A stretch of DNA of 38,564 nucleotides. It comes from a virus. Made by a program: the position numbers and the translations under genes. The notes beneath the pieces are model-generated. The model saw only the letters and a list, made by a program, of their open reading frames with translations. It was not told the DNA's origin and made no database searches. Where the stretch lies: UHGV virus genome UHGV-1336581. One strand, given 5' to 3'. This document shows positions 4,726 to 37,707 of this stretch, piece by piece (within the stretch, counting starts at the first letter, position 1; every line of letters starts with the position of its first letter).

Positions 4726-5052
4726 ATGCCTCATAACCCAAATACCTGGCTGGAGTTGGTCCAGAGCTGGTGGCGTGGAGACACACCGCTGGGCGCAGTG
4801 ATTATGTCGATCGTTATGGCTGGTTTACGTATTGCCTATTTTGGCGGCGGTGGCGGCTGGAAACGAAAAACACTCGAAATTTTGCTCTGTGGCGCTCTGA
4901 CGCTGACATTTGCATCCGCTCTTGAGTATGTCGGATGGCCTAAATCACTTTCTGTTGCCATTGGTGGTGGTGTTGGGCTGATCGGTGTCGATGCTATTCG
5001 TGGGGCAGCAATGCGAGTAATCGGTAACAAATTTGGTAGCTCGAAGGAGTAA
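4726..5052 (+). CDS. Holin (lysis module)
   Basis: Small protein with several hydrophobic helices and a charged C-terminus, immediately upstream of the endolysin with a 3-nt gap; start may be further in. Confidence 0.55.
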   Translation: MPHNPNTWLELVQSWWRGDTPLGAVIMSIVMAGLRIAYFGGGGGWKRKTLEILLCGALTLTFASALEYVGWPKSLSVAIGGGVGLIGVDAIRGAAMRVIGNKFGSSKE

Positions 5053-5055
5053 TTT

Positions 5056-9884: not shown

Positions 9885-10459
9885 CAAACGATGATTACAT
9901 CCGCCTGTTATCGGCACTGTTGCCGCCCGGTCCGGCGTGGTCAGCCAGCGATCCGGCGATTGCCGGTGCGGCACCGTCATTAACCCGTGTTCATCAGCGT
10001 GCGGATGCCCTGATGCGGGAGCTGGATCCGCGCACCACCACTGAACTGATAAACCGCTGGGAGCGTCTGTGCGGTCTGCCGGATGAATGTATTCCGGCGG
10101 GAACGCAGACCCTTCGCCAGCGTCAGCAACGGCTGGATGCGAAGGTTAACCTGGCGGGCGGCATCAACGAGGATTTTTACCTTGCACAGCTTGCTGCCCT
10201 GGGGAGACCAGACGCCACCATCACGCGATACGACAAAAGCACGTTCACCTGCTCATCTGCATGTACTGACGCTGTGAACGCGCCGGAATGGCGGTATTAC
10301 TGGCAGGTCAACATGCCAGTCGCCACCAACACCACCTGGATGACATGTGGCGATCCCTGTGATTCCGCACTGCGTATCTGGGGCGACACAGTTGTCGAGT
10401 GTGTGCTTAACAAACTCTGCCCGTCGCATACCTACGTAATTTTTAAATATCCGGAGTAA
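9875..10459 (+). CDS. Tail protein, YmfQ / Mu gp48-like
   Basis: 194-aa protein directly upstream of the tail fibre gene, overlapping the J-like gene stop. Confidence 0.6.
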
Positions 10460-10462
10460 TCC

Positions 10463-11113
10463 ATGCATCGTATAGACACGAAAACCGCGCAGAAGGATAA
10501 GTTCGGCGCGGGTAAGAACGGTTTTACCCGTGGTAACCCCCAGACCGGCACGCCTGCCACCGTTCTGGATGATGACTACTTTGACATGTTGCAGGAAGAA
10601 CTTTGTAGCGTTGTTGAGGCATCCGGTGCCAGTCTGGAGAAGGCGCAGCACGACCAGCTGCTTACCGCGCTTCGTGCGCTGCTGTTAAGCCGCAAGAATC
10701 CGTTTGGCGATATCAAATCGGATGGCACCGTGAAAACGGCTCTCGAAAACCTTGGTTTGGGAGAAGCGGCGAAAAGGGATGTAGGCACAGGAGAAAATCA
10801 GATACCGGATATGTCAGCCTGGAAAAGAAATCCGAGTTCTAATCGCTGGAGAAAATTGCCTGATGGAACCATCATTCAAATGGGAATATCAGCATCAGGG
10901 CCATTAGGCTCACCTGTAAATATCACCCTGCCGATATCTTTCAGCAATACCAATTATTGTGTTGTTGCATCGTACGATAATGCACGGTCAGATGTGTCAA
11001 CAATGGTTAGTTTTGCAGCGTTACCTGTTTCACCATCGCAATTTTCCCTGATGTCATCTGTGACTGAGCAAGGAATAAATCCTTTTGCTTACTGGATTGC
11101 TTTTGGAGATTAA
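10463..11113 (+). CDS. Tail fibre protein: constant N-terminal part fused to variable C-terminal segment (current orientation of the invertible region)
   Basis: The ORF crosses the left recombination site near 10741-10766 (...[10 protein letters not shown]...); the part downstream lies inside the invertible segment. Confidence 0.7.
10741..10766. repeat. Invertase crossover site, left (gix/pix-like, inside tail fibre gene)
   Basis: TCTCGAAAACCTTGGTTTGGGAGAA is an imperfect inverted copy of the site at 12636-12661; 14 contiguous bases identical (TTGGTTTGGGAGAA). Confidence 0.65.
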
Positions 11114-11116
11114 TAA

Positions 11117-11536
11117 ATGGACAGATACTTCTATTCACAAAAAGAAAATGGTTTTTTTACCGATTTAAATAAAGCACCTTCAGATGTTGTTGAGATAACC
11201 ACGGATGAATGGCTGTTACTACTGGATGGTCAGGATAATGGCATGAAAATAGTCAGCAATCAGGAGGGATATCCGGTTTTGACAGAGCAACCACCTTTAT
11301 CAAAAGAAAACCTTATTGCATTGGCGGATTTGAAAAAAAGAAAACTTATTAATGAAGCCAACGAGCACATGAACAGCAGACAATGGCCTGGTAAAGCGGC
11401 TATTGGTCGTCTGAAAAGTGAGGAACTGGCGCAATATAATTTGTGGCTGGATTATCTGGACGCACTGGAACTGGTTGATACCTCCAGTGCTCCAGATATT
11501 GAATGGCCTACGCCTCCGGCAGTTCAGGCCAGATGA
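11117..11536 (+). CDS. Tail fibre assembly protein (Tfa, active-orientation copy)
   Basis: C-terminal ...VDTSSAPDIEWPTPP motif typical of Tfa chaperones; directly follows the fibre gene. Confidence 0.7.
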   Translation: MDRYFYSQKENGFFTDLNKAPSDVVEITTDEWLLLLDGQDNGMKIVSNQEGYPVLTEQPPLSKENLIALADLKKRKLINEANEHMNSRQWPGKAAIGRLKSEELAQYNLWLDYLDALELVDTSSAPDIEWPTPPAVQAR

Positions 11537-12113
11537 CATCCGGCGCGGTGCTGGTATCTGTTGCCGTCACCGCGTCAATGTAATCCAGCACAGCGTTAAG
11601 TCTGGTTGTTTCTGCCTGCGTCAGTTTACGTCCGGCCTGTAATTTCAGCTGAATCAGACTAATGGAAGCCATTGCTGCATCAATCAGTGACTGGCGCTGT
11701 GCTTCTGCCGCGTCTACTGCGGCATTATGCTGTGCCTCAGTATCTGTCACCCATTTCTCACCATCCCATTTATCGTATGGCGTTAACGGGACGATAGTTG
11801 TTGTATTTTCAGGGTAATCACCCGGAGTTGTGATTTCTTTTGATTCTCCCGTTTCGGTGTTATAGACAACTTCACCGCGATGGTCTGGCACATATTCCCA
11901 TGAGTTTAAATCTGCCGAACGGCAGATTGCATAACCAGCCTTATGTGTTCCAGGAGCATCTAAACAGGAATATGCAGGGATACCGACACCCACAGCAAGA
12001 TATTCAGTTGATGCAGAAATATACTCCCGTATCTCACTGTCATAGTTATAAACGGTAATCTCTCCTGCCTTTGTGGCAATAAATTTACTATTTAAGATGG
12101 CGTTATACATCAT
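11508..12113 (-). CDS. Tail fibre assembly protein (alternate Tfa inside the invertible segment)
   Basis: C-terminal ...TDTSTAPDVIWPELPEA; 3' end overlaps the plus-strand tfa convergently, as in Gin/Pin/Cin invertible regions. Confidence 0.7.
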   Translation of the reverse strand: MMYNAILNSKFIATKAGEITVYNYDSEIREYISASTEYLAVGVGIPAYSCLDAPGTHKAGYAICRSADLNSWEYVPDHRGEVVYNTETGESKEITTPGDYPENTTTIVPLTPYDKWDGEKWVTDTEAQHNAAVDAAEAQRQSLIDAAMASISLIQLKLQAGRKLTQAETTRLNAVLDYIDAVTATDTSTAPDVIWPELPEA

Positions 12114-12688
12114 GCAGCCCTCACAATGTAATTAAATGAAATATTACGTGGGCGTGTCTCTGCTGCACCGACAATACTGGTACTCAACCCCGTCGCTGTT
12201 CGTTTGTTATTTTTATTTCCTTCAATCAGACAGTTGTAATCATCATTACCAATTAACGAATTAGTGGCATCAATACCGTCCGGGGACAAGGCATTAGTTG
12301 TAGAACTTAAAGTCAGCATCTCGTCTGAACTTGGAAGATTTTTTAATGGTGTTTCATTGCGAGAAATACCCGCGTAAAAAAAGGACTCATGCCTGTGCGC
12401 TTCAAAAGAGTCATCCTGAAGACTTAGCAAGGTACGTCCCGCATCCACTCCACGCCCGTCATCCCAGCCACGAATAAACTCACCACGTAAATCAGGCAAT
12501 TTATTTGTCGGATAAGCCTTTGCCAGTTCCGGGTATTCTTCAGCAGAAAAAGCGGCACCGTTGCATTTCAGCCAGCCTGTTGGCGGAGTGGCGGAAGGCC
12601 ACGGAACAGGCACGCCAACGGGTAATGCCGAACCTTCTCCCAAACCAACGTTTATGAAAATGCAGAAATAACGAGCAAATGGCATCAT
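12110..12688 (-). CDS. Alternate tail fibre C-terminal segment (silent in this orientation)
   Basis: Minus-strand ORF whose 5' end abuts the right recombination site; the GLGEG junction mirrors GLGEA of the expressed fibre. Codons upstream of the crossover site are not a real N-terminus. Confidence 0.6.
   Translation of the reverse strand: MMPFARYFCIFINVGLGEGSALPVGVPVPWPSATPPTGWLKCNGAAFSAEEYPELAKAYPTNKLPDLRGEFIRGWDDGRGVDAGRTLLSLQDDSFEAHRHESFFYAGISRNETPLKNLPSSDEMLTLSSTTNALSPDGIDATNSLIGNDDYNCLIEGNKNNKRTATGLSTSIVGAAETRPRNISFNYIVRAA
12636..12661. repeat. Invertase crossover site, right (gix/pix-like, just upstream of pin)
   Basis: TTCTCCCAAACCAACGTTTATGAAAA; its reverse complement matches the left site; lies immediately 5' of the invertase gene. 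Confidence 0.65.
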
Positions 12689-13269
12689 TCCTGCTTTTGT
12701 CAGGGATATCTACCATGCTTATTGGCTATGTACGTGTGTCAACAAATTACCAGAACACAGATCTACAACGTAATGCGCTGAACTGTGCAGGATGCGAGCT
12801 GATTTTTGAAGACAAGATAAGCGGTACAAAGTCCGAAAGGCCGGGACTGAAAAAACTGCTCAGGACATTATCGGCAGGTGACACGCTGGTGGTCTGGAAA
12901 CTGGACCGACTGGGGCGCAGTATGCGGCATCTTGTCGTGCTGGTGGAGGAGTTGCGCGAACGAGGCATCAACTTTCGTAGTCTGACGGATTCAATTGATA
13001 CCAGTACCCCAATGGGGCGCTTTTTCTTTCATGTGATGGGGGCCCTGGCTGAAATGGAACGAGAACTGATTGTTGAACGAACAAAAGCTGGACTGGAAGC
13101 TGCTCGCGCACAGGGACGAATTGGTGGACGTCGTCCCAAACTTACACCAGAACAATGGGCGCAGGCCGGACGATTAATTGCAGCAGGAATTCCTCGCCAG
13201 AAGGTGGCGATCATCTATGATGTTGGTGTATCGACACTGTATAAGAAGTTTCCGGTCGGAGATAAATGA
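12679..13269 (+). CDS. pin: Serine recombinase, DNA invertase Pin/Gin/Hin family
   Basis: MLIGYVRVSTNYQNTDLQRNAL...GDTLVVWKLDRLGRSM...HTH C-terminus; near-identical to e14 Pin as I recall it. Real start probably the MLIGY Met about 12 codons in. Confidence 0.9.
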   Translation: MASFLLLSGISTMLIGYVRVSTNYQNTDLQRNALNCAGCELIFEDKISGTKSERPGLKKLLRTLSAGDTLVVWKLDRLGRSMRHLVVLVEELRERGINFRSLTDSIDTSTPMGRFFFHVMGALAEMERELIVERTKAGLEAARAQGRIGGRRPKLTPEQWAQAGRLIAAGIPRQKVAIIYDVGVSTLYKKFPVGDK

Positions 13270-13519: not shown

Positions 13520-15856
13520 TTAATCAAAAAGGTCATCCTCCCTCAATCCAAGCCACTTTTCGAGATGCATAAGCAGTATTTTCAGGGCTTCTTCATACTC
13601 TGGGAATTCGTTTAGGTTAATCGAGTCAATTCTAGCTTTGGCAACATCTATGCCAATAAAATCGGCAATTGTTTCTTTGTTGAAACTGTTGTGAGGGGTG
13701 GATACCCTGTCACCATATGTGTAGCTGGTACCTCGGTGCATCAAGCGAGAGATCACGGCTGCGAAACCTTGGTTGGTTTGAATTACTTTCATCACCCACT
13801 CACGCGGTTCATCTATTGAATTCGTATAATCTTTCCAGCGATAAAGCTGATATATGAGATTAGGCTCGGTGAGCAGTGTGTTACCGTCTGCTGCGCGGCC
13901 CCTAATCAATCGCAACCATTCAGCCTTCATTTCCGTAATGGTGTTTAGATCTAACGCTGGCTCGAAGACACCGCTATCCCTATTTTCTCGATCGTCTGGA
14001 TCGCTCAGGTGAATAAGGAGCGAGGAGACAGATAACGCTTTAGTTTTACGGAGAGCGTCGAGAGCCAAATCATTTCGAACATCCTCAGGAAGCCGCTTCA
14101 GGAATTTATTTGTCGCTCGCCATGCTGCCACATATGACGGGTCAAAAGCACCATTTTTCGAGCTTGCAAGTTTTTCAGCAAGTATGAACATCCCCGGTAG
14201 CAAAATAGATGCGTTCTCAGTTGGTAATCGATCGACGGATTCGTCGAGCCTGGCTACGAGCGAGTTCAGTAGGCCATCAGCTTCGACGGTAGTGATTTCC
14301 TCATAGAGTTCTCTCTCTGTTGCTGTTGCATCGAGAAAATCAACAAAGCGACGCTCAGACATTTCTCCGATTGTCGTCTGAAGTTCGAAGTAACGAGGAA
14401 AGTAACGTGATGTGCATACTCGTTTCTCCGCCAGCCACTGGAGATGGAAGCCGTCTGCATAATGTGTTCCTCCATATGCCCATTCGAGAGGAGGAAATAA
14501 GTCTTTGAGCGTGTCACGAACGATATCGCGGCGTTTCTCCGGCACGATCTCAAGAAGCTTCTTAGCTGCTTCTTGGTCTAACTTCTGCCGGTTATTAAAT
14601 GAGTAATGTCTTTCTTGGAGAACCAATTCCCGCTCACGGAACAGTGTAGCGTGGAGATCTGGCTCAAAGACCCGGAGTGTCTCAAGAAGTAAGAAATCAA
14701 CAATGTTTACCTCGAATACATTGCCAATAACATGTAGTGGCATATTTATAGCAATAGACGAGATGAGGCGACGTGCATCGCGCATGTTTTTAAGCCAAGG
14801 CTGGATGCAACCAATGTAAGCGTTACCCCAGCGTGTCTGAGAGAACCCGTTTGCCTCGATTGCGTAAGGGTCTGCAATTTTAGCGAGTTCCTCCTCAAAC
14901 ATACGATGCACGAGCGATGCCGGGACTGCAGGAAGATCAAAACTAGCTTGCACGATTTTCTCAAGGAAGGCTCGACCATCACCGTCAGCAACTGGATCGA
15001 GTGCCCTCTCTACGATACTGGTCTGGAACAGTAGCACAAAAACAATGTTTGGCAGATTAGCATTCGCTTTTACTTGACGAAGTAGCATCCTGATCTGCTC
15101 TGGCTCGAGTCGGTCAATGTCGTCGACGAAGACGACCAGCGGACGCTCAAGTTCTCGAAGACGAGCCTCCAGCGATCTGCGTACCTTGTCGAGTGGCTCG
15201 CCACTATGGTCACGCCCGAGATATGTGAGTATGCGTCCAACAAGAGGAATTCCGACTGAGAGTAGTGAAAGAACAGCCGCAACCCCTGCGGCTGTGGGAA
15301 GGTCAAAGCCAATAGCTGACGCGATCGCTACAACGGAAGCATTAGTTAGCACTGTAGAGACTAGGAAGCTTGAACTACCGACCTCTTTAAGAGGTTTGCC
15401 GACCCCTATGAGGATTGCTCCGTAGCGTCGTAGTGCTTCGGCACGGTCAAGCTCAGCCTTCGAATGTTCACCTCTTAGGGAATTTGCTATCTGACCAAAT
15501 AGCGCGCCAGTGATGGCATCACCGTCTCCCCATTGCCATGGATTGAAATCGAGCCAGTTCGCCCCGTTGTTCTTGGCATCGAGCTGTTCGGTAATGAGAT
15601 TTTTTAGTGATGATTTGCCAAAGCCCCATCCTCCTCGGATAGCAAACACTCGGCCTTCGCGCAAACTAAGCTCTGAAAGCACATCAGCTATGCGAGCTGC
15701 AAATTCGGTCCTTCTAAGGCGATCTTCGGATGCTCGCCGAATTGGGGCCTCCGCCCCGATCCCCTCGTCCGGTCGCTCGTTCTTTATCACGTCAGCATTA
15801 GGCTTCGCGCGACGATGAGCGCGCCATGCCGTCAAGCGGAACAATAGCTTATTCAT
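13520..15856 (-). CDS. KAP-family P-loop NTPase with membrane insertion (Tmn-like candidate defence protein)
   Basis: Walker A GGWGFGKSS about 80 aa from the N-terminus, followed by hydrophobic helices inserted in the NTPase domain (VLTNASVVAIASAIGF...VLSLLSVGIPLVGRIL), a KAP hallmark; 778 aa. Confidence 0.7.
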   Translation of the reverse strand: MNKLLFRLTAWRAHRRAKPNADVIKNERPDEGIGAEAPIRRASEDRLRRTEFAARIADVLSELSLREGRVFAIRGGWGFGKSSLKNLITEQLDAKNNGANWLDFNPWQWGDGDAITGALFGQIANSLRGEHSKAELDRAEALRRYGAILIGVGKPLKEVGSSSFLVSTVLTNASVVAIASAIGFDLPTAAGVAAVLSLLSVGIPLVGRILTYLGRDHSGEPLDKVRRSLEARLRELERPLVVFVDDIDRLEPEQIRMLLRQVKANANLPNIVFVLLFQTSIVERALDPVADGDGRAFLEKIVQASFDLPAVPASLVHRMFEEELAKIADPYAIEANGFSQTRWGNAYIGCIQPWLKNMRDARRLISSIAINMPLHVIGNVFEVNIVDFLLLETLRVFEPDLHATLFRERELVLQERHYSFNNRQKLDQEAAKKLLEIVPEKRRDIVRDTLKDLFPPLEWAYGGTHYADGFHLQWLAEKRVCTSRYFPRYFELQTTIGEMSERRFVDFLDATATERELYEEITTVEADGLLNSLVARLDESVDRLPTENASILLPGMFILAEKLASSKNGAFDPSYVAAWRATNKFLKRLPEDVRNDLALDALRKTKALSVSSLLIHLSDPDDRENRDSGVFEPALDLNTITEMKAEWLRLIRGRAADGNTLLTEPNLIYQLYRWKDYTNSIDEPREWVMKVIQTNQGFAAVISRLMHRGTSYTYGDRVSTPHNSFNKETIADFIGIDVAKARIDSINLNEFPEYEEALKILLMHLEKWLGLREDDLFD

Positions 15857-16486: not shown

Positions 16487-17356
<870 letters not shown>

Positions 17357-17676: not shown

Positions 17677-18621
17677 TCACAACCAGCCGACGCTCTCTCG
17701 CCATTTATAATTAGTAACTTTATCATTTTCGCTTATTTTTTTAGATATAGAGCGCGGCTCTCTTCCTAGATACTCAGATATTTCTGTCGGGGACAAATCA
17801 AAATCGACAAGCATGACTCTAAGTTTTTCCATTTCCTTTAAAGTCCAAGGCTTGCCATAATTTTCATAAAGAGATACCTTATGCTCCCTAATAGTTCGCT
17901 TTCTCTGAGTTTCACTTTCCCTCTGAAAAATCTCGCTTTTAAATTGTGAACGGAACTCTTTACAGAAGTTGTTATCAGTTTTTTTGTTATATAGATTGCT
18001 AAAAATAAGCTGGGATGCCGGGTCTAAATCAGGTGTGTTAATAATGAAAACTTTGACCTTTTCCATATAGGGATATTCAATTTTACCCAATATGCTTAAT
18101 TGCTTTATATTAAAAAAACCTCTCAAATCAAAAGATTTAATGAGCTTTGATTGGATTACACTTTCAATCCTGCTTGCATTTGAATAACAGTACTTTGCCA
18201 TTGGAAGGGCCCATACTACCAGTTGAGGAATATATTTTTCTAATGCAATGCTCTGCCAATCAGTATCAAAGGTTTGGCTTTTTGCTAGCATGTTTTTCGG
18301 CAAATCAGAATACATTGTGGTAGATGCCCATATCTTATAATCATTCGCCAAGGCTTGATAGTATTTTGTGTGGTTATGAATTTTATAAGCTGACATGAAG
18401 CGATAAACGTCTTCGTCGTGACCAGCGTCGTAAATTGTTCGATTTCCTCTAAGATAACCGTCGTAATGTTCGGTTATCCTTCTACCTACATTACAACTTA
18501 CCCCAACGTAAACCACACGACTGAAAAGTCCTTTATGGACAATAAGATAAACTCCGCTACAGCCAGATTTCCTGGCCTCTGATAGAGAACCTAAAAATCT
18601 CCATTCCATAATTAAATCCAT
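17677..18621 (-). CDS. GIY-YIG nuclease domain protein with C-terminal HTH-like region (AT-rich)
   Basis: GVYLIVHKGLFSRVVYVGVSCNVGRRITEH (GIY-YIG-like with R and E); C-terminal WTLKEMEKLRVMLVDFDLSPTEISEYLGREPRSISKKI looks like a helix-turn-helix; visibly AT-rich. Confidence 0.55.
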   Translation of the reverse strand: MDLIMEWRFLGSLSEARKSGCSGVYLIVHKGLFSRVVYVGVSCNVGRRITEHYDGYLRGNRTIYDAGHDEDVYRFMSAYKIHNHTKYYQALANDYKIWASTTMYSDLPKNMLAKSQTFDTDWQSIALEKYIPQLVVWALPMAKYCYSNASRIESVIQSKLIKSFDLRGFFNIKQLSILGKIEYPYMEKVKVFIINTPDLDPASQLIFSNLYNKKTDNNFCKEFRSQFKSEIFQRESETQRKRTIREHKVSLYENYGKPWTLKEMEKLRVMLVDFDLSPTEISEYLGREPRSISKKISENDKVTNYKWRESVGWL

Positions 18622-19273: not shown

Positions 19274-20488
19274 GTGAAACTCAATGCCCGTCAAATAGAC
19301 ACTGCCAAGCCAAAAGAGAAGGCTTACAAGCTGGCTGATGGTGGTGGTCTGTATCTCCTGGTAAAACCTAGTGGAGGAAAATACTGGCGCTTTAAATATC
19401 GTGTAGCTGGTAAAGAGAAGCTGTTAGCACTAGGTGTGTATCCTGAAGTTACCTTGGCTGATGCTCGTGCAAAACGTGAAGAAGCTAAAAGGGGTATCGC
19501 TGGGGGTATCGATCCGATGGAAGCGAAACGAGAGGAAAAGATTGCCCGGGAAACGCAGTTAAACAATACCTTCAAAGATATTGCCCTTGAGTGGCACAGC
19601 AGCAAATTAAAAAAATGGTCTGCTGGTTATGCTTCAGATATCCTCGAAGCCTTCAACAAAGATGTGTTCCCTTACATTGGCAAAAAACCAATTGCCGAAA
19701 TCAAACCACTTGAACTTCTGAATGTGCTGCGACGCATCGAGGGGCGCGGTGCTACAGAAAAAGCCAAAAAAGTGAGGCAGCGGTGCGGGGAAGTTTTCCG
19801 CTATGCAATAGTCACTGGTCGCGCAGAGTATAACCCTGCCCCAGATCTTACTAGCGCGATGCAAGGCCATGAATCTAATCATTATCCTTTCCTCACAGCC
19901 AAAGAATTGCCTGATTTTTTCAAGGCATTGTCCAGTTACTCAGGAAGTGCATTGGTTGTTATGGCGGCTCGTCTACTGATTATCACTGGTTTGCGAACTG
20001 GCGAACTGCGCGGTGCATTATGGGATGAAATCGATCTCAACAAGGCTATCTGGGAGATACCTGCTTCACGGATGAAAATGCGTCGCCCTCATGTGGTGCC
20101 TTTGTCTAAGCAGGCTCTTTCTCTTATTGGGCAGATTAAAGAATTAACTGGTAATTATCCGCTTATGTTTCCCGGCCGTAATGATCCAAGGAAAACAATG
20201 AGCGAGGCTAGCATAAACCAAGTATTTAAACGCATCGGCTATAACGGAAAGGTTACTGGTCATGGATTCCGGCACACCATGAGCACGATTTTACATGAGC
20301 AGGGCTATAACACCGCGTGGATAGAAACGCAGCTTGCACACGTTGATAAGAACTCAATTCGTGGCACGTACAATCATGCGCAATATCTGGACGGGCGGCG
20401 CGAGATGCTCCAGTGGTACGCCGACTATATGGATTCGCTCGAACATGGCGGTAACGTGGTGCATGGCAAGTTCGGAAAATGTGGATGA
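19274..20488 (+). CDS. int: Tyrosine integrase, P4-type (N-terminal arm-binding domain)
   Basis: LNARQIDTAKPKEKAYKLADGGGLYLLVKPSGGKYWRFKYRVAGKEKLLALGVYPEVTLADARAKREEAK is the P4-integrase N-terminal signature; C-terminal HxxR...Y catalytic region (GHGFRHTMSTIL...HV...RGTYNH); GTG start, adjacent to the tRNA fragment. Confidence 0.9.
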   Translation: MKLNARQIDTAKPKEKAYKLADGGGLYLLVKPSGGKYWRFKYRVAGKEKLLALGVYPEVTLADARAKREEAKRGIAGGIDPMEAKREEKIARETQLNNTFKDIALEWHSSKLKKWSAGYASDILEAFNKDVFPYIGKKPIAEIKPLELLNVLRRIEGRGATEKAKKVRQRCGEVFRYAIVTGRAEYNPAPDLTSAMQGHESNHYPFLTAKELPDFFKALSSYSGSALVVMAARLLIITGLRTGELRGALWDEIDLNKAIWEIPASRMKMRRPHVVPLSKQALSLIGQIKELTGNYPLMFPGRNDPRKTMSEASINQVFKRIGYNGKVTGHGFRHTMSTILHEQGYNTAWIETQLAHVDKNSIRGTYNHAQYLDGRREMLQWYADYMDSLEHGGNVVHGKFGKCG

Positions 20489-21916: not shown

Positions 21917-22717
21917 ATGAAATTTCCAAAAACGCCCGTACAGGGGCGGGGCTTCGTTCGGCCTGAAAACCAGAATCTGCAAAATTTCGGCGAAATTATC
22001 CCGATTATTTCCGGCGTTATTGGCGGGAGTGAAACCACTATTGTTAGCGCCAGAGCGTTACATAAGGCGTTAGGTGTAGGGCGCGTTTTCCGTTCGTGGA
22101 TCAAGGGGCGCATTGAAGAATACGGGTTCACGGAAGGCGTGGATTATGAGGTTGTTGAATATTTGAGCCGACCCGATCCGGTGAGCGCAAAATCTCGCCA
22201 GCAAACCGCTCTTGAGTACATCATCACAGTGAACATGGCGAAAGAACTGGCGATGGTCGAACGTACCGAACAGGGCCGCGCCGTTCGCCAGTACTTTATC
22301 AAATGCGAGGAGGAGCTACACAAGGTTGCGCCTGTTCGTTCCGCAGCGTTACGCCGGGAACTGAAAGCCCGTATCACAGTTGCCAGCTACTTTAAGCCAA
22401 TGTGTGCCGCGCTGGAGGCGTACCGGGCTGAACTGGGTAAAAACACACTCCAGCACCACTACACCACGGAAGCGAGCATGCTGGCGCGTATCGTGCTGGG
22501 TGGCATGACTGCAAAACAGTGGGCACTGGCGAACGGCATTACAGGCGAACCACGCGACCACATGAGCACGTTGCAGCTTGAGCACCTTTCTTACCTTGAG
22601 CAGAGCAATATCACGCTGATTGAGTTAGGCCAGGACTACCACCAGCGGAAGGCTGAATTAATTCGTCTTTCGCAGCGTTGGTTAGCCCGTCGCATGGAGG
22701 AAAACAGCCATGTGTAA
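21917..22717 (+). CDS. Phage antirepressor-like DNA-binding protein (Ant/Rha/KilA-N-type N-terminal domain)
   Basis: N-terminal TIVSARALHKALGVGRVFRSWIKGRIEEYGFTEGVDYEV resembles antirepressor-type DNA-binding domains; domain assignment is tentative. Confidence 0.45.
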   Translation: MKFPKTPVQGRGFVRPENQNLQNFGEIIPIISGVIGGSETTIVSARALHKALGVGRVFRSWIKGRIEEYGFTEGVDYEVVEYLSRPDPVSAKSRQQTALEYIITVNMAKELAMVERTEQGRAVRQYFIKCEEELHKVAPVRSAALRRELKARITVASYFKPMCAALEAYRAELGKNTLQHHYTTEASMLARIVLGGMTAKQWALANGITGEPRDHMSTLQLEHLSYLEQSNITLIELGQDYHQRKAELIRLSQRWLARRMEENSHV

Positions 22718-23430
22718 CGCTCTGACCGTTACAAAAAGAGAAAGCGCCCCGTTGCCGGAGCGCCTTTGTGAACGAATAGCCTACTGCGCCATATTGCTTA
22801 CTGTCTACGAGGCAGATTATAGCGTTGTGGTCGCACAGAGTGAAGGCGCTGATCACCGTTACTACAGCACGCCAGAAATGCAGAATATTTTGCTGCAAAA
22901 TGTCGTTGATCACACTGTCCGAAAAGCAAAAAATTTTGCTGGTGGCGCGACTGATGCGATTTTGTCAGGTCGCCAGGTGCTGATCAATCTGATGTCTGAT
23001 TTCGTTCTGGATAAAACAAAGGCGACCGCAGAGGGCCGCCAGTGGGAAAGCTACATACTTGAACGCATCGCCAACAATGCCAGATTTGCGGCTGGTGGGC
23101 AATGTGTCAGCTTTGCACCAATGACTCTATGTTTAACTGAGGGTCATTATGGTGAATATGCTGGCTTGCTGGTGGGCTATTCCTGCTCTTTAACATCGCC
23201 ATGCCGCGATGTTTTCCAGGTATGCGATCCCATTTTTGTGCGCCTGTACTCTTTAAGGAATTTCTCAAGGATAAACGCACAGGGCGCGAATCTGTTTGAC
23301 TCATGCTCGTACGCTATCTTTCTGCGCTGTCTTTTCCGTGCCGGTGATGGTGTATTGGTTGATTCTTTGTTGGTCATGGCGCTGCCCTGTAAAACGATGC
23401 ACCGTAGTCCCTCACACCACGGCGCTGGTG
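22710..23430 (+). CDS. Hypothetical protein, probably disrupted (5' part of a 485-codon open frame)
   Basis: First ~150 codons look protein-like; downstream the same frame becomes Cys/Ser/Arg-rich and runs through a convergent minus-strand gene and a divergent promoter region without a stop. End coordinate is arbitrary. Confidence 0.3.
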
Positions 23431-23434
23431 ATGG

Positions 23435-23614
23435 TTACTCCTGTTCTTTGGCCTTGCGGCGCTGGCGGCGTTTGATCTCGCCTTTTGCAGCAGTAACTAA
23501 AAAACCAGCGGTACTTTCGCCAGGTTCTTTAAGTTGCTCAATATCATCCATTACTTCATGTGGGATTCTGACAGTTGTCATTTGTGATTTTGCGTTCTTT
23601 GCACCAGTTGCCAT
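23435..23614 (-). CDS. Small ribbon-helix-helix-like DNA-binding protein
   Basis: MATGAKNAKSQMTTVRIPHEVMDDIEQLKEPGESTAGFLVTAAKGEIKRRQRRKAKEQE has a beta-strand/helix pattern like CopG/Arc; divergent from the gene starting at 23802. Confidence 0.4.
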   Translation of the reverse strand: MATGAKNAKSQMTTVRIPHEVMDDIEQLKEPGESTAGFLVTAAKGEIKRRQRRKAKEQE

Positions 23615-23801
23615 TTCTGGATCTCCTAAAAATTGGTGTATGTCAGTATACGCAAAAAAAATGATAAAAAAAGGCTTGAAGTGTATTTCACCAGTAAGTA
23701 AATTAAAAAGCAAAGGTGAAATACACCTAAAAGAGCAACGCCCCGCAGTGCTCGCAACACATGCAGGGCGTCTAACCAAACCGTTAAATGAGGTAACGAT
23801 T

Positions 23802-24167
23802 ATGGCTGGAACACAGCATACTCAAACTCACCCTAAATTTATATACACCTTCCTGGCGGTGCACCGTGATTGCATGGCTGACGGTAAAAACACTGTACAC
23901 GTAGCCGCCGATACGCTGGTTGATGCCTGCAAGATGCTCAATGACATGGGCTATATCTCGGCAACATGGAAAGGGCGCGAAGAAAACACGCTGTTTATTC
24001 AGAAATGCGAAAACAATTTTATATGGCGTTTTATCGCCCTGAGTACGGCACAACCGCGCGTGATTCACATCGAGGCCACCAGCGAACAGGAAGCACGCCA
24101 GCAATCTCCTGATGGCTGCGTGATGGTATTCACTGCCCGTATTCGCCAGGAGGTGGAGCATGTGTAA
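23802..24167 (+). CDS. Hypothetical protein
   Basis: Internal ATG of the long open frame, preceded by GAGGTAACGATT (RBS-like) and a divergent AT-rich promoter region; 122 codons; stop overlaps next start. Confidence 0.5.
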   Translation: MAGTQHTQTHPKFIYTFLAVHRDCMADGKNTVHVAADTLVDACKMLNDMGYISATWKGREENTLFIQKCENNFIWRFIALSTAQPRVIHIEATSEQEARQQSPDGCVMVFTARIRQEVEHV

Positions 24168-25165: not shown

Positions 25166-25456
25166 ATGAAAAAGAAAAATTCTGGCTTTACTGCCAGCGG
25201 TCTCTCTCGGCCTGAAATCAGACACGGAGATATTTACCGCGACACCAGACGTGGGGGACGAGTGGTTATTCGTCACGTTACGCCAGGCAATATCACCTAC
25301 CGCCGTGAGGCTTACGAATATGACTGCGTAATGCCGCGCCGTCAGTTTGAGCGTGATTTTATTCTGGTTGAAAACAAACAACAGGCGGTGGCGAGACGTG
25401 CAGCCACGAATATTAAAAAAATCCGGGCAATGTTGGTTGCGGGAGGTAAGAAGTGA
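25166..25456 (+). CDS. Hypothetical small basic protein
   Basis: 96 codons; stop overlaps the start of the helicase-like gene. Confidence 0.45.
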   Translation: MKKKNSGFTASGLSRPEIRHGDIYRDTRRGGRVVIRHVTPGNITYRREAYEYDCVMPRRQFERDFILVENKQQAVARRAATNIKKIRAMLVAGGKK

Positions 25457-26865
25457 AAAACGCACCGAATTTAAAATATCAGCCGAAGGATAAATTCACC
25501 GAGGTAATCATTTTTGCCGGGACGGATGCTTACGCCCATGCTCAACACTGGATTGAAAGCGAAGGACGAAAACACGGCGATAACGTACCACCTGTTTACC
25601 TGGGGCCAAAGCAACTGGCAGACCTGGCGAATATCCGCATTGTCGACGATGAACGCCGCTTTGCGCGTGTCTATCTCGCGGGGGAGATCGAACCAATCCA
25701 GATCAATGCTATCGCTGAAAAGCTGGCGCTGGCTGGCGTACAGGAGGCGAAATTATACAAAGGTATCACCGACGGGGAGCCGGAGAACTGGCACGACTAC
25801 CTGCAACGGATCCGCGAACAGGCTGAGCGCGGGGAAATACTTACTGACGAGCAATACAGCCAGCGAAAAACCACGCTACCAATGAGCATTGGATCGGAAG
25901 GATATGATTCACAGCTTAGCTATGTAGTTAAGGGCGTGATTCCGGCTAATTCGCTATGTAGCACATACGGTGCGAGCGGTTCTTATAAGTCGTTCCTTGC
26001 GTGTTCGTGGGCGTGTCATGTTGCTACCGGTATCCCGTGGGGAGGTCGCAGGGTTGTACATGGTGCGGTGATGTATGTCGTTGGTGAGGGCGGGATCGGT
26101 GTTCCTCGTCGTATCAAGGCATGGGAACTGGTGAACAGTGAGCAGGTGAAAAATCTATACCTGGTAAATCGTCCAATTTTTCCGGCCGCACCGGGTGATG
26201 TTGATGAAATGGTTATTGCTGCCCGACAGGTTGAGCAGGAAACGGGTAAACCTGTACGCATGATTATTCTGGATACTCTGGCGCGTTGCTTTGGTGGCAG
26301 CGATGAAAATGATGCGCGGGATATGGGGGCATTTGTCCATGGATGTGACGAACTGAAACGACGTACAGGCGCTACAGTGCTGGTAATTCACCATTCCGGC
26401 AAGGATGAAACAAAGGGTGCGCGCGGTTCCAGTGCGTTTCGTGCAGCACTGGATGCAGAATACCGGATACGCCGTGAAGGTGCAGGCAGTGAAGCCCTGG
26501 TTATCGCATGTACCAAGATGAAGGATGCGGAGGAACTGAAAGAAATGGCTTGCGATTTGCGCGAGGTTGAGCTTTTCAAGGATGAGGGCGGGGAGTTAAT
26601 CACGTCGCTGGTGCTGGAGGATAAGCCCCGTCCGCCGGTTGAACTGGAGCGCATCGAGGAAGCTGGGAACAAGACGGAGAATCACGCCGCACTATGGGGT
26701 TGTATTCGTTCACGCACGCAACGCGGAGATAAATGTACTATTCCGTTGTTGCGCGATGACATGAAAAAGCTGGGGTATGAGATGAAAAACTTCCGGCGCT
26801 GGCTGTACAAGCTGGAAGGTGACGGCGTAATCGCTATTGACGGTGATGATGTGCGCCCACTGTAA
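25453..26865 (+). CDS. RecA-fold AAA ATPase, replicative helicase-like (RepA/DnaB-type)
   Basis: Walker A GASGSYKS, Walker B-like MIILDTLARCFGG, and VIHHSGKDETKGARGSSA typical of RepA/AAA_25-type helicase-ATPases of integrative elements. Confidence 0.7.
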   Translation: MKNAPNLKYQPKDKFTEVIIFAGTDAYAHAQHWIESEGRKHGDNVPPVYLGPKQLADLANIRIVDDERRFARVYLAGEIEPIQINAIAEKLALAGVQEAKLYKGITDGEPENWHDYLQRIREQAERGEILTDEQYSQRKTTLPMSIGSEGYDSQLSYVVKGVIPANSLCSTYGASGSYKSFLACSWACHVATGIPWGGRRVVHGAVMYVVGEGGIGVPRRIKAWELVNSEQVKNLYLVNRPIFPAAPGDVDEMVIAARQVEQETGKPVRMIILDTLARCFGGSDENDARDMGAFVHGCDELKRRTGATVLVIHHSGKDETKGARGSSAFRAALDAEYRIRREGAGSEALVIACTKMKDAEELKEMACDLREVELFKDEGGELITSLVLEDKPRPPVELERIEEAGNKTENHAALWGCIRSRTQRGDKCTIPLLRDDMKKLGYEMKNFRRWLYKLEGDGVIAIDGDDVRPL

Positions 26866-27266
26866 AAAGTGAAGCGTAAAAGTGAGGGGGGAAGGGAATA
26901 TTTAAAAATCATCCCTGTTTTCCTCACTTTCTCACCTGTATATAGATCAAAAAATGAGGAATTAAAAAAACATTGCAAAACAACATATTACAACAATAAA
27001 GAAAACGACTGAGGAGCAGAACAAGAATAACAAAAAGTGAGGAACAAAAGTGAGGAATGGTGAGTTAATAGAAATGAGGTAATAAAAATAACAGGTAGGT
27101 TAAAAAACATACCATGCAAGATATTAACTAAAACTTAACTATTTACCTCACTTTTGCGTATATATAAGGATTAAAAAGTGAGTGCTTAAAAATATATTTA
27201 AAATCATATTGTTATTAACTTCATAAATTCTCACTGCGCAGCAGGTGAGGAATTAAAAAATCAGGA
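26866..27266. repeat. AT-rich iteron region (many copies of AGTGAGG / TGAGGAA in both orientations); candidate replication origin
   Basis: Repeated AAAGTGAGG(G/A/T), GGTGAGGAATT, AATGAGGAATT, and inverted CCTCACTTT within about 400 bp directly downstream of the helicase-like gene. Confidence 0.4.
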
Positions 27267-27917: not shown

Positions 27918-28304
27918 GCAAGCAGACTGCAAACATTCTCGATTATCTGATGAACAGATTCTCACCGGTTAAACCACTGGCATCTGATGATGTTCAGGCA
28001 TTCGGTAGGTTCGAGCGCAGCAGTCAGGAAAATGCTGCTGTCGATGTACAGCGGAAAGTAGCAGGAACTGTCTGATGCATTACTACGGGCTCCTGGACTC
28101 GATATGGAGCAGCTGAAACGTCTCGCATTTTCACGAATCATGTCTGAGAACGGGCAGGTTATTAGTGCAGTTGCCGCTCTTAAAACATGACTTAGCTTGA
28201 GAACGAATCAACAAGTTAGAGAAAAATCACCCCTAACAGCTTAAAATTTACATAAAAAGACTTTGACTTCTTATAATTGCTGCTATTATCAGCATAAGAA
28301 AAAT

Positions 28305-28334
28305 AAAACCTCGCCAGACAGCGGGGTTTTTCTG
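28305..28334 (+). terminator. Rho-independent terminator
   Basis: AAAACCTCGC-CAGACA-GCGGGGTTTT hairpin (10-bp stem, one mismatch) followed by a T run. Confidence 0.5.
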
Positions 28335-28408
28335 TCTAAAAAGAACTATAAAAACAACATGTAGTGTCGAAGCATTGACGCAAGCACTACATTTAGCGGA
28401 GTACTAAC

Positions 28409-28633
28409 ATGGCTGAAATCAATTACGAAAAAATTCTCTTGGAAACGGGACTTGTGGCATCAAATACTTCAGGTATCCAGTTCCCACAACAATTTGGCGC
28501 AATGAGCCATGAGTTCGGCGGCTTAAGCGGTGTTGCAAGTTTTTCTCATCAACATGAGATGACTAAGCTTAAGTGTTCTACCAGAACAACTGGCTACTCA
28601 ACTTTGCATGTAAGCACCACTACAAAAGCTTAA
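28409..28633 (+). CDS. Hypothetical small protein (upstream partner of the protease gene)
   Basis: 74 codons, 18-nt gap before the protease gene; no family recognised. Confidence 0.4.
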   Translation: MAEINYEKILLETGLVASNTSGIQFPQQFGAMSHEFGGLSGVASFSHQHEMTKLKCSTRTTGYSTLHVSTTTKA

Positions 28634-28651
28634 CAAGGACGTTACCATCCC

Positions 28652-29548
28652 ATGCCCAATCTGGCCCAAGTCTTGGAGGAAATCCAAAGCCTCCAAGACG
28701 ATTCTCGCTTTGATATTGTCCGCCGTAAATACATAAAAGCTTTGAGCGACAGTACTGATAGAAACGTAATATGTTACTACACAGACTTTTTACATAACGG
28801 TAATCATCAGCATGTCAGCATCAATGATGATGACAAAAATGGTTTCATGGCTGTTGTTAACGGAATGGATAGAACGAAAGGCTTAGACCTTTTCTTGCAT
28901 ACCCCTGGTGGTTCTATAACTGCGGCTGAGTCTCTGGTTTACTACCTTAAAAAGCTTTTTAATGGTGATATTCGGGCCATTGTTCCTCAAATGAGCATGT
29001 CTGCAGGAACAATGATTGCGTGTGCCTGCAAAGAAATTGTAATGGGGCATCATTCAAGTATCGGACCTTTTGATCCTCATATCTTTGGTGGTCTTTCAGC
29101 TTATGGTATTTTGGAAGAGTTAAAAAATGCTATTGATAGCATTCAAAAAGAACCTTCCAGCCTCCCGATTTGGCAAACAATCATCTCGCGCTACCCACCT
29201 ACCATTTTTGATACAGCTAGCAAAGCTATTCAGCTTGCCGATGATTTGGTTACTGAATGGTTAAAAAATGGAATGCTTAAAGATTTACCTGAACCTCGGC
29301 GTAGCGAACTCGCCACTGCGATTGTCAAAAGCTTAAACAATCGTACGGATACGAAGGATCATTCTCGGCATATCCACGCAGAGAGAGCCATTGAATTAGG
29401 TTTGCGGATCACTCAGCTTGAAGACCATCCCCAGTTTCAGGACGCAGTTCTTACAGTACATCACTGTTGTACACAAACCCTTTTCAACACTCCTACAGTT
29501 AAGCTTATTGAAGGCTCTAATAACCAATCCTTTATTCGGCATATCTAA
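28652..29548 (+). CDS. SDH-family / ClpP-SppA-like Clp-fold serine protease
   Basis: [20 protein letters not shown] and [19 protein letters not shown] resemble the catalytic-serine region of ClpP/S49-type peptidases. Confidence 0.6.
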
Positions 29549-29866
29549 AAGTTTGGGGGTACTTAAGCGCCCCCTTCTCGATTATGCGTAAAATAATATT
29601 AATAATTAATCACTTACATAGTGCAAGCCATGTCATGTATGAATCGAAAAACTGAAACTCATTGTTAACTTAGATTATCATCGGTACTTTCGATAAAGTT
29701 ATCCGGGGTCATCATAACTCTTTATGTGAAGTATCCCCAATATAACCTCATAATTTAACTTATTGTAGTGTATGTATTTTTATTATTTAAATATCAATTG
29801 TTTTGTTGAGATGCAAGCGGCTCGCCAAAACCGTTTTGATATTTATTGCCCGGTTAGATCGGCTTT

Positions 29867-30180
29867 CTAGGACAACAGATCACGTACCCGGTTTGCCGTC
29901 CAGTCCGGGATATGCTCAATGACGTAACGCAACCATTTTTCTGGCTCCTCCTTGTTCAGACGGCACGTGCCGATCAGCAAGTACAGCACCGCAGTATGTT
30001 CGCCACCGCTGTTGGAACCTGCGAACAACCAGTTTTTCCGGCCCACTGCCACACCACGTTAGGCGTTTTCGGCGATGTTTTTGTCGATTTCCACCCAGCC
30101 ATTATTGCAGTATACGTTCAGCGCATCTATATGAATGCATCCCGTTTCGTAGTTTTGACGTTGATGGTAGATGAAAGTAC
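29867..30180 (-). mobile_element. IS66-family transposase 3' remnant (frameshifted C-terminal ~100 codons only)
   Basis: Minus-strand translation gives ...ALNVYCNNGWVEIDKNIAENA and, after a frameshift, VGRKNWLFAGSNSGGEHTAVLYLLIGTCRLNKEEPEKWLRYV, matching the conserved IS66 TnpC C-terminus; no N-terminal transposase sequence. Confidence 0.6.
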
Positions 30181-30749
30181 CGGGCATGAAACAATCAGTA
30201 AAAACGATGGGGCAAAGCATGACTAAGCTGACCATTAACAGAAAACCGAAAGGCATTTACGGCACGCCGCAGAAAACGACGCAGGCGGCACAGGAGCAGG
30301 ATAAAACCCCATCGGCGCATAAAGTGATGCTCGGTAACCAGAAAGCGCAGCAGAAGCTCACAGGGGCGACATCGTGGCGGCATATGACCAAACGCCAGCG
30401 CAAAAATCGCAGGCGCGTTAACCGCCTTACTGAGTTGTGGCCTGAATTATTCAACCGGGAAGCACCGAAGCCGCTTAAGGTGGGAATATTTGACGACCTG
30501 ATGCAGAATCTCGCCGTCAGGGGGCTGGCATTCGGGCCAGGGGCATTACGTGCGACGCTGGCATCTTATGCGCAGTGTCCGCGCTATTACCGCGCCTTAA
30601 TGGCTGGTGGGGTACGCTACGACCTGAAAGGCCAGCCGTGCGGCGAGGTGACACCACAGGAACAACAGGACGCAGAAACGCGGCTGGTGGCGCTGAATGA
30701 GAAGCGCAAACGTCAGCGCCGGGCAGCAAAGGAGAAAACAGGCGCATGA
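30171..30749 (+). CDS. FinO/ProQ-family RNA chaperone-like protein
   Basis: WPELFNREAPKPLKVGIFDDLMQ and ALRATLASYAQCPRYYRALMAGGVRYDLKGQPCGEV match the ProQ/FinO domain; real start probably an internal Met, since the 5' end overlaps the IS66 remnant. Confidence 0.65.
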   Translation: MKVPGMKQSVKTMGQSMTKLTINRKPKGIYGTPQKTTQAAQEQDKTPSAHKVMLGNQKAQQKLTGATSWRHMTKRQRKNRRRVNRLTELWPELFNREAPKPLKVGIFDDLMQNLAVRGLAFGPGALRATLASYAQCPRYYRALMAGGVRYDLKGQPCGEVTPQEQQDAETRLVALNEKRKRQRRAAKEKTGA

Positions 30750-31033
30750 TTCACGACAGCAAAGCGGAAGCACTGGAAGCGCGTGGTCTGTACCGGAGAG
30801 CGGCGGCTCGGTGGGCTGAGGTCATCATGCTGGCGAATGATGACAAGGCACGGGAACAGGCGGCAAAACGTCGCGCGGAATGTATCCACAAGGCAGCACG
30901 CCCACCAGCAAGGCAGGATAATTTCGGGGAGATGCGCAAAACCATCAGCCGGGCACATGTCGGGATGGGATTACATCAGCCCAATGGTGAGGCATTCAGG
31001 AAATACCAAAAAAAGAACAATTGTAGTCAGTAA
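30746..31033 (+). CDS. PerC-like transcriptional activator family protein
   Basis: DSKAEALEARGLYRRAAARWAEVIM resembles the PerC N-terminal signature; ATGA overlap with the upstream gene. Confidence 0.5.
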   Translation: MIHDSKAEALEARGLYRRAAARWAEVIMLANDDKAREQAAKRRAECIHKAARPPARQDNFGEMRKTISRAHVGMGLHQPNGEAFRKYQKKNNCSQ

Positions 31034-36108: not shown

Positions 36109-37707
36109 ATGAGCGTGGCAATAAAAACAATGACACCAGTGTCATATTCTATAAAAGTTGATGCGATTAAGAAAAGATTATCATATTTTAGTGATGTTTC
36201 TTTTTTGAGAAATTTTTATGAACACTTCCAAAAAGTAAGGGATGTCGAGGTGGGTATTGTTTCCAATTTCCCTTGGTGTTGCTATCTGGCAATGAAATGG
36301 AAGTTTTGCATGAAGGAAAAAAAGCCTGCAAAAGAAATGAGTAAAAATGATTTTATTGATATTATCAACTTAATCTATAACTTGCAACTAGAAGCATCTA
36401 ATTTAATCGTTGATGATAAAGTTATGCTAAGCCTTAGACGAATGGTGATAAATCAGTTGCTTTATCAATCAACTGATAAATTTAATGCCAATTCATTAAC
36501 AAGACAGTATATTTGGTATTGCTTGAATGATGAATCATATTATAAAGATAAGTTTTTAGAATGTACTGGTTTACATTTGGAAAGCTATTACAAAATGGCA
36601 TGTTATTTTACCGCTATTTCATGTATTAATCCTGATATAGAATCAGAGGTTATTCCATTTAAACACTTGATAATAAACTTGGTTCCGATATTTGGTCCGG
36701 AACAAGTGAAAAGATTTTTGGAATTAACATGCTTAAAAATTGATGGTGTGAGAGATTTTATTGCCCCATATAAATTGGATAAAAACATTACCGCTGAGTA
36801 TTATGAAGATACACCATTCCTCAGTAAACCAATGTTTTTAGATGGCGATGGTGTAGTGATATTATGCAAAAGAATCATGAAGTCAGGGTTTGTCAACCTA
36901 GTTCCAGAATTGTTCAAGCAGGTCTATAAGGAATCTTATAAAGAAAAATTTGGTAAGACGATGGAACTTTATATTTCTCGCTTTCTTGATAAGTACAATT
37001 ATAACTTTAAGACTGAAAGTGAGGTTAAGAAGATTTATAGTGATAATGCAATAAAAAATTGCAAGTCCGTAGATTTTGTTATTTCAGAGGGAGATTCAAT
37101 AGTTTATATTGACTCGAAGGCAATAGAGCCTGCAAAGTTCGTTAAAACATCTAATAATGCTCAGTTGCTAAAGGAAAGGTTGAATAAGAGTTTTATTAAA
37201 GGGATTTATCAAGGTCAGGAATGTGCTTTTAACTTAAATAAAATAGAGATGAGAAAACCATCTTCGAAAGATTCAATGTTAATTGTGGTGCATCGGGATC
37301 ATCATATATCAAATGCAATGCTTGTGCAGGATTTTATTAACCCTGATTTATCAACTGAGTTATCTGAAAAATATCATAGTATCCCCATTGATCTAAAAAG
37401 AATTTACTATATAACAATTGATGAGTTCGAATTATTACTTATGATGTGTAAACAGAAAGAACTATCTATTAATGAGTTTATTGATATGTGTGTGGAAAAA
37501 GATTCATTCCCTCATACTCAGAAGTCTAATCTAAGCATGCACATATATGAATTTGCACCAGAGGGTATTGATGATGATCAATTGATTGTAAAAGGAAGAG
37601 ACTTACTGATTGATGATGTTATTGAAAATATGAAAGAGAGTGCATCAAAATGGTCTGGGAAAGTTGATATGTATCTTAAAATAAAAGATTATATTTTTAA
37701 TTGGTAA
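36109..37707 (+). CDS. Large hypothetical protein (AT-rich cargo); possible PD-(D/E)xK nuclease core
   Basis: 532-codon ORF in a very AT-rich block with an AT-rich upstream region; central SVDFVISEGDSIVYIDSKAIE fits an hhhD...(D/E)xK pattern. The nuclease assignment is an inference only. Confidence 0.55.
   Translation: MSVAIKTMTPVSYSIKVDAIKKRLSYFSDVSFLRNFYEHFQKVRDVEVGIVSNFPWCCYLAMKWKFCMKEKKPAKEMSKNDFIDIINLIYNLQLEASNLIVDDKVMLSLRRMVINQLLYQSTDKFNANSLTRQYIWYCLNDESYYKDKFLECTGLHLESYYKMACYFTAISCINPDIESEVIPFKHLIINLVPIFGPEQVKRFLELTCLKIDGVRDFIAPYKLDKNITAEYYEDTPFLSKPMFLDGDGVVILCKRIMKSGFVNLVPELFKQVYKESYKEKFGKTMELYISRFLDKYNYNFKTESEVKKIYSDNAIKNCKSVDFVISEGDSIVYIDSKAIEPAKFVKTSNNAQLLKERLNKSFIKGIYQGQECAFNLNKIEMRKPSSKDSMLIVVHRDHHISNAMLVQDFINPDLSTELSEKYHSIPIDLKRIYYITIDEFELLLMMCKQKELSINEFIDMCVEKDSFPHTQKSNLSMHIYEFAPEGIDDDQLIVKGRDLLIDDVIENMKESASKWSGKVDMYLKIKDYIFNW

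Follow-up and report, generated by a model that had tools for sequence, protein, structure and literature searches.

A mobile gene pair for a small protein and an SDH-type serine protease in a PICI-like satellite: a probable anti-phage cassette

What is a ClpP-fold serine protease doing in a mobile island, directly behind the gene for a 74-residue protein? The pair lies in a stretch of viral DNA of 38,564 nucleotides (UHGV-1336581), called the window below. The original prediction, made from the letters of this stretch, had set a protease-based abortive-infection or toxin-antitoxin-like module beside a mere remnant of a head-maturation protease. We read the region as an autonomous, horizontally mobile two-gene cassette that is accessory cargo of a PICI-like satellite and most likely serves anti-phage or superinfection defence, of the kind catalogued as FS_HP_SDH_sah; to this reading as a whole we assign a probability of about 0.6.

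Layout of the pair and identity of the protease

In the ORF list of the window, the cassette comprises two open reading frames on the + strand that share a common frame and are separated by 18 nt, which bears out the two-gene module first proposed. The upstream gene (28409-28633, + strand; GGAG 7 nt ahead of the ATG) encodes the small partner of 74 aa, and the downstream gene (28652-29548, + strand) encodes a 298-aa protein that PF01972, phrog_11747 and an AF2 model identify as an SDH-type ClpP-fold serine protease. With a leader and a 3' hairpin, the whole cassette amounts to ~1.37 kb (about 28203-29585, + strand), and its G+C content of ~40% is lower than that of the surroundings. The right end is marked by a GC hairpin with a weak U-rich tail (29555-29585, + strand; dG -11.7, z -1.5). 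A clear GC hairpin stands right 3' of the stop codon in 7/9 aligned related cassettes, with differing sequences, and is unclear in the remaining two (L101 and L102).

Profile searches of the kind suggested at the outset (PF01972, S49, ClpP) place the 298-aa protein in the Pfam family SDH_protease (PF01972; E=9e-19, residues 52-254), with 68 bits against a gathering cut-off of 31.3 bits, and give weaker matches to ClpP, S49 and NfeD. Over its full length the protein matches phrog_11747 (E=5e-85), a family of unknown function. PGAP names the product 'SDH family Clp fold serine proteinase'; the score against NCBIfam NF047768 (Clp_like_SDH) is 82.7 bits, below the equivalog cut-off of 250, and the protein is therefore taken as a divergent SDH subfamily. 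An AF2 model built with 24 homologues reached a pLDDT of 89. Foldseek comparison of this model with the PDB returned ClpP, SppA and 1510-N, all distant (E ~1e-4, TM 0.4-0.6), and no solved structure of a close relative was among the PDB matches from Foldseek or the profile search. The best matches among viral models (BFVD) are SDH proteinases, not prohead proteases. These closest viral structural relatives include several 'serine dehydrogenase proteinase' paralogues in giant viruses (Mimivirus-like, Klosneuvirus, Hyperionvirus and Marseillevirus).

Candidate catalytic residues are conserved. In a profile search against PDB sequences, Ser117 (motif MSAGT; codon at 29000-29002, + strand, located by profile alignment) aligns with the nucleophile of ClpP and 1510-N, as in other PF01972/NF047768 proteinases. 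S117, D141 (in GPxDP), H83, H237, H240, H270 and H271 are invariant in the 24 homologues, which share ~50% identity; in the sequence alignment, an invariant Asp in GPxDP followed by downstream invariant His residues is consistent with a Ser-Asp-His order. The protease shares fold and nucleophile position with ClpP, SppA (S49) and NfeD/1510-N but differs from them in having no ATPase partner, signal peptide, membrane anchor or stomatin neighbour, in scoring below the family cut-offs, and in carrying an extra C-terminal helical domain of ~150 residues that contains invariant His residues. Neither the protease nor the 74-aa protein contains a signal peptide or transmembrane segment, the maximum 19-residue hydropathy being 1.09. 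An identity as SppA/S49 was rejected on scores (PF01343, 12.5 bits against 24.9; TIGR00706, 24.5 against 155), and the SppA/NfeD reading also on the missing signal peptide and membrane anchor. As far as homology and conservation can tell, the protein looks soluble and catalytically intact, a Ser protease from the SDH branch of ClpP-fold enzymes, with activity expected on those grounds.

These comparisons bear on the proposal that the protease matures phage heads, either as a remnant or as a working prohead protease with a small scaffold-like partner, in the assembly of satellite or phage capsids. ClpP-related prohead proteases (NF045542, lambda C-type S49) do share a distant fold relation around the catalytic Ser, which appears as weak similarity to NF045542 (E=3.5e-7) and phrog_53 (E=2e-8). 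However, NF045542 yields 30.3 bits against a cut-off of 120, both matches span just ~65-75 residues around that Ser, the C-terminal domain is a different one, and both the full-length match (phrog_11747) and the best viral structural matches point elsewhere. Genomic context, taken up below, completes the case.

A conserved leader with hairpins

Upstream of the small gene lies a conserved non-coding leader (28203-28408, + strand), delimited by alignment across E. coli, Klebsiella, a P22-like prophage and other hosts. It extends over ~200 nt in closely related, enterobacterial-type cassettes and is judged non-coding because its indels are not multiples of 3. When the window is compared with P22-like or metagenomic copies, the leader is 77-81% identical, whereas identity at 4-fold degenerate sites in the protease gene is just 37-45%; the segment that contains its first hairpin reaches 81-92%. 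At this level of sequence comparison the leader is under constraint.

Two elements stand out within it. A promoter-like block (28247-28289, + strand) consists of TTTACA (28247-28252), TTGACT (28263-28268) and an extended -10 element, TGcTATTAT (28281-28289); it is 79-100% conserved among cassettes, and a consensus scan missed it because the spacer is 15 nt. Its sequence suggests promoter function. The block is followed by hairpin 1 with a U-tract (28305-28336, + strand; GC stem 28309-28326, U run 28327-28331; dG -13.2 kcal/mol, z -3.4). Of its 10 pairs, 2 remain paired in the most distant copies (L101 and L102) although both bases have changed, and the tail GGGG(T/C)TTTT is almost unchanged in 11/11 sequences. 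The original prediction had described a strong terminator upstream that insulates the pair from the replication genes. A hairpin with a U-tract does exist at 28305-28336, although it went unflagged in a consensus scan for terminators, and the insulating role assigned to it fares less well: the hairpin sits ~1.4 kb past the helicase gene and, because it is conserved along with the cassette in unrelated host elements, is part of the cassette's own leader instead of the replication module. Judged by sequence, it may be an insulator or an attenuator.

A second hairpin (28359-28392, + strand) closely precedes the Shine-Dalgarno GGAG (28398-28401). Its arms are conserved in most cassettes, with a z-score of just -1.1, a weak signal. 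With these elements in place, the cassette would be transcribed from its own conserved leader, through a promoter-like block and then a terminator-like hairpin, and the latter probably holds expression low or conditional.

An Rfam scan of the leader returned nothing above gathering scores. Below threshold, the promoter-plus-hairpin part (28237-28332, + strand) resembles istR (25.1 bits, E=0.02) and isrJ (25.6 bits, E=0.04), which are Hfq-binding sRNAs. This resemblance likely reflects a generic likeness to sRNA terminators; on the same sequence grounds, a short RNA could be made from 28237-28332.

The small partner and the spread of the pair

The 74-aa protein had been described as belonging to no recognisable family, and searches of Pfam, NCBIfam, PHROG and PADLOC indeed gave no match. 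A profile search of 1.84 billion representative proteins with an alignment of the small protein yielded 4 matches only, and its homologues form 7 clusters. Nevertheless, the evidence indicates that the small ORF is a real gene. Its dN/dS of 0.05-0.26 indicates purifying selection, and wherever a contig spans the downstream gene, homologues always lie 18-20 nt upstream of an SDH protease of 297-298 aa. Exact-sequence counts of the two genes are almost equal, at 390 against 385 contigs for the E. coli versions and 546 against 490 for those of Klebsiella. A spurious small ORF was considered and rejected on this linkage to the protease in every close relative and on the dN/dS values.

Among close relatives, the N-terminal 15 and C-terminal 25 residues of the small protein are invariant (INYEKxLLETGL at the N-terminus, KLKCSTRT..YSTLHVSTTTKA at the C-terminus), while the middle is variable and bears indels. 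The small gene also evolves faster than its neighbour, its dN being 4-5x that of the protease. AF2 modelling of the protein alone gave a pLDDT of 61 with a sole helix at residues 6-13, and the protein is predicted to be soluble and mostly disordered.

Leader, small gene and protease travel together among close relatives. In E. coli the cassette occupies an island at tRNA-Gly; in Klebsiella, a satellite with a D5-type primase that adjoins menA/hslUV; and in P22-like prophages, a site after gp7/gp20/gp16, downstream of the ejection genes. It is also present in a further phage-like element and in a prophage slot with an integrase on one side and HicAB and an O-acyltransferase on the other. Carriage is sporadic: 6/5426 complete E. 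coli genomes contain the cassette, compared with 778/5426 for the helicase backbone of the island. Mu-like, Porphyromonas and Gordonia phages contain more distant homologues of the protease (36-48% identity), and a small ORF lies upstream of each.

Beyond these elements, protease homologues number in the thousands. A scan with one genome per species gave 80 loci from most bacterial phyla and archaea, at 44-51% identity; the patchy spread, with ~47-51% identity to the query over many phyla and archaea, points to horizontal transfer. A small upstream ORF accompanies the protease at 69 of the 80 loci, compared with 23.5% of control ORFs (p=1e-27); partners were counted if they encoded 45-125 aa on the same strand and ended within -60..+30 nt of the protease start, and the controls were other large ORFs of the 80 loci. 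In most of these relatives the two frames overlap by 1, 8 or 26 nt (-1, -8, -26) or are separated by gaps of <20 nt; in 2 loci the small ORF is downstream of the protease instead of upstream. No other conserved neighbour was found across the 80 distant loci, and capsid genes were absent there too. With an 18-nt gap here and overlapping stop and start codons in most relatives, the 74-aa protein and the protease would be made together.

Two families of small ORFs, A and B, could be captured by HMMs and grew from 10 to 35 and from 7 to 10 members. Among 8750 ORFs these HMMs gave zero off-target matches, and most of their sub-threshold matches (7/7 for family A) were again protease-adjacent ORFs. 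Two further families, C and D, are not counted as independent evidence because their seed sets recovered themselves only. The partner families have a common plan, with an amphipathic helix at the N-terminus, then a variable linker, then a C-terminal strand that ends in a Ser/Thr-rich motif, and hhalign relates A to B over the N-terminal helix (E=0.002). Family membership tracks the phylogeny of the protease, with 64% identity within and 55% between families and 0/2000 permutations as extreme. Comparison of the window-type small protein with families A and B by hhalign was not significant (E=0.08 and 0.39, respectively); its tie to them is one of position, size, coupling and motif resemblance only. 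In Gordonia phage BeeGee (MW601219; L099 4825-5001) we noticed an unannotated 58-aa ORF whose stop codon overlaps the start of an SDH-protease homologue (gene 31) and which has the same pattern of helix and Ser/Thr tail as the partner families.

From these features, the small partner may bind the protease through both ends, by its N-terminal helix and its Ser/Thr-rich C-terminal segment. That it inhibits the protease is a tentative proposal drawn from architecture alone, and we hold it with less than even confidence. The variable middle would be just as compatible with a role as adaptor or sensor. In such a role, the ends would dock on the protease while the middle recognises a phage protein, or the small protein would be a substrate that yields an active peptide. 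The conserved ends, the variable and indel-prone middle, the 4-5x higher dN and a C-terminus rich in Ser, Thr and Cys, like that of a processed peptide, are all compatible with this scheme. However, genes for export, modification or a receptor were not found near the 80 distant loci, and neither protein carries a signal peptide or transmembrane segment. The present data do not separate it from the inhibitor model, and we consider it rather improbable.

The breadth of the family raises a different question, whether the protease is a housekeeping or regulatory cytoplasmic enzyme with a dedicated small substrate and no link to phage, for example a stress switch like ImmA/ImmR or CapP/CapH. Its very wide spread in bacteria and archaea, often amid housekeeping genes, would suit such a role. 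Flanks in the distant genomes are indeed mostly housekeeping genes; the commonest family there is the integrases (5/126), type I restriction-modification accounts for 2/126, and the neighbour-family counts of these genomes contain no signal of defence-island enrichment for the wider protease family. Nevertheless, the distribution is patchy in a manner that suggests horizontal transfer, the neighbourhood contains no conserved regulated operon, the partner lacks an HTH domain, and in Enterobacterales the cassette was found on satellites and prophages only. We therefore regard a regulatory protease of this sort as quite unlikely.

Context speaks still more clearly on head maturation. Related E. 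coli PICIs do carry capsid, decoration and TerS genes, and in Porphyromonas phages the protease and its small ORF lie between portal and neck genes. However, the latter copy is beside a HicAB moron, the protease homologue of a Mu-like Shewanella phage sits between a late regulator and the lysis genes, outside the head module, and the cassette keeps its leader across hosts whose virions are of quite different types. No recurring capsid, portal or terminase family stands beside the 80 relatives. The original remark that no capsid gene is nearby holds for the island part of the window, where none was found; the phage tail genes at 1-13269 are part of a neighbouring prophage distinct from the island. 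On these grounds, and with the sub-cut-off scores given above, we judge a head-maturation protease, remnant or working, to be very improbable.

The host island and a probable role in defence

The island that hosts the cassette has the make-up of a PICI: an integrase (19274-20488), a regulator or antirepressor (AntA, 21917-22717), a replication gene with an adjacent origin, and PerC, without a full set of virion genes. DUF4222 (25166-25456) runs into the gene for a RepA-type helicase (AAA_25; 25453-26865), which is directly followed by an AT-rich stretch with ~10 copies of GTGAGGAA-like iterons in both orientations (26880-27260); judged by its sequence, this stretch is probably the replication origin of the island. 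Beyond the cassette are a transposase-domain pseudogene remnant (29867-30127, - strand), directly downstream and so annotated where other E. coli genomes carry the identical region, a ProQ/FinO-family gene (30171-30749, + strand) and, overlapping it, a gene for a PerC-family regulator (30746-31033, + strand). Homology links the backbone to a small int-HTH-Icd-DUF4222-RepA-PerC island of E. coli O157:H7 that has capsid, head-decoration and TerS genes and that we take to be the published PICI EcCIEDL933. Gram-negative PICIs typically carry PerC-like genes (PMC11773190), and an immune hot spot of PICIs has been described adjacent to the pri gene (PMC11364771). The site of the cassette, ~1.3 kb beyond the helicase stop and past the iterons, roughly matches that hot spot.

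A system called FS_HP_SDH_sah is listed by DefenseFinder. We take the name to denote a hypothetical protein plus an SDH_sah protease, reportedly validated from PICI satellites, with SDH_sah presumably being the former Pfam identifier of PF01972. The FS_ systems of DefenseFinder presumably come from Fillol-Salom et al., Cell 2022, a study that reportedly cloned accessory genes from PICIs of E. coli and Klebsiella and showed anti-phage activity. Judged by its name, FS_HP_SDH_sah resembles the present cassette in pairing a hypothetical small protein with a PF01972 protease, adjacent and co-oriented, and in carriage by PICI-type satellites of Enterobacterales. The likeness is one of name and make-up; on that basis we consider the cassette to be of an already known kind. 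We know of no mechanism for FS_HP_SDH_sah, and literature searches, which did not cover Fillol-Salom et al., found no mechanistic paper on the pair; it is possible that the small partner found across phyla and the conserved leader have already been reported elsewhere. PADLOC v2, the detector applied here as the original prediction had proposed, gave no match for either protein, having no model for them. The Tai system of PICIs was considered and is a different protein from the one in this cassette.

Defence genes also lie close by in the window. A 778-aa KAP-family P-loop NTPase (13520-15856, - strand), at the end of the neighbouring prophage, matches the PADLOC PifA model (E=7e-79), and a 274-aa GIY-YIG protein (16487-17311, - strand) gives a full-length match to PADLOC PD-T4-3 (E=7e-140). 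Together with the catalogue entry and the status of the cassette as mobile cargo in satellite and prophage slots, these neighbours leave a defence or toxin-antitoxin-like role, as originally suggested, as the best-supported reading. That the cassette is a defence cassette, taken as a statement by itself, we consider likely.

How might such a cassette work? The small partner would restrain the protease as a pseudo-substrate or labile inhibitor, in an antitoxin-like manner; phage infection would remove or override it, and the freed protease could then cleave host or phage proteins and halt phage production. A more speculative version, which we think improbable, sees the pair as an ancient two-component protease switch of bacteria, archaea and their viruses, in which the disordered partner would be a pseudo-substrate 'fuse' that co-evolves with its protease, and the enterobacterial leader, with its promoter followed by a terminator, as an attenuator that would open only if an infecting phage brought antitermination or disturbed transcription. 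If true, one small cassette would unite RNA-level and protein-level triggers.

The architecture invites comparison with addiction modules, in which the protease would be the toxin and the small protein the antitoxin, stabilizing the mobile element with phage protection as a side effect. As in type II toxin-antitoxin systems, a small upstream gene is translationally coupled to a larger one through overlapping or abutting stop and start codons, and the two-gene unit is mobile, sporadically distributed and often found on prophages. The lack of any other conserved neighbour in distant genomes and the mostly housekeeping flanks there would also suit addiction, and HicAB adjoins the cassette or its homologue in two unrelated phage contexts. 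However, the small partner has no DNA-binding domain, and the FS_HP_SDH_sah entry classes the pair as anti-phage, although both roles are compatible. We deem stabilization by addiction to be possible yet improbable as the primary function. ImmA/ImmR and CapP/CapH switches and Lit abortive infection are likewise mobile, often prophage-borne systems with a small coupled upstream partner and an enzyme; they and type II toxin-antitoxin systems differ from the cassette in that its partner has no recognisable DNA-binding domain and its protease belongs to a different fold family. Taken together, we rank first a defence cassette in which the protease is the effector and the partner an inhibitor-like regulator, followed by an addiction module, an adaptor or substrate role of the partner, a regulatory protease unrelated to phage and, last, a head-maturation protease.

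Read as a defence cassette, the pair is among the smallest modules of its sort at a time when protease effectors are increasingly recognised in bacterial immunity. It offers several handles for mechanistic work, namely a tiny, fast-evolving and disordered partner, a match between partner and protease phylogenies, and a constrained leader with a built-in terminator. For annotation, the 74-aa 'hypothetical protein' and the 'SDH family Clp fold serine proteinase' are better treated as one mobile defence-type unit than as a phage head protease.

The rest of the window contains further genes that are open to the same question. Between the AntA and replication genes is an ORF of 485 aa that falls into no Pfam or PADLOC family (22710-24167, + strand), in place of which the related islands L001 and L111 have other small genes. 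A 314-aa ORF beside the PD-T4-3 gene (17677-18621, - strand) has no match. Near the far end of the island, a 532-aa ORF with no Pfam or PADLOC family (36109-37707, + strand) lies in a stretch of 29-32% GC and is a candidate for more accessory or defence cargo. The far end of the same island differs among other strains, with DUF4747 and a hypothetical gene in F9792 but SieB in WGI31CT; such variable cargo occupies 22604-24096 in L111 and 25321-25866 in L001, and the far end looks like a second variable hot spot. Within the tail region of the neighbouring prophage, an insert of 28-30% GC (3001-4354, + strand) with two ORFs (3204-3731 and 3710-4354), neither with a PADLOC match, looks like a moron.
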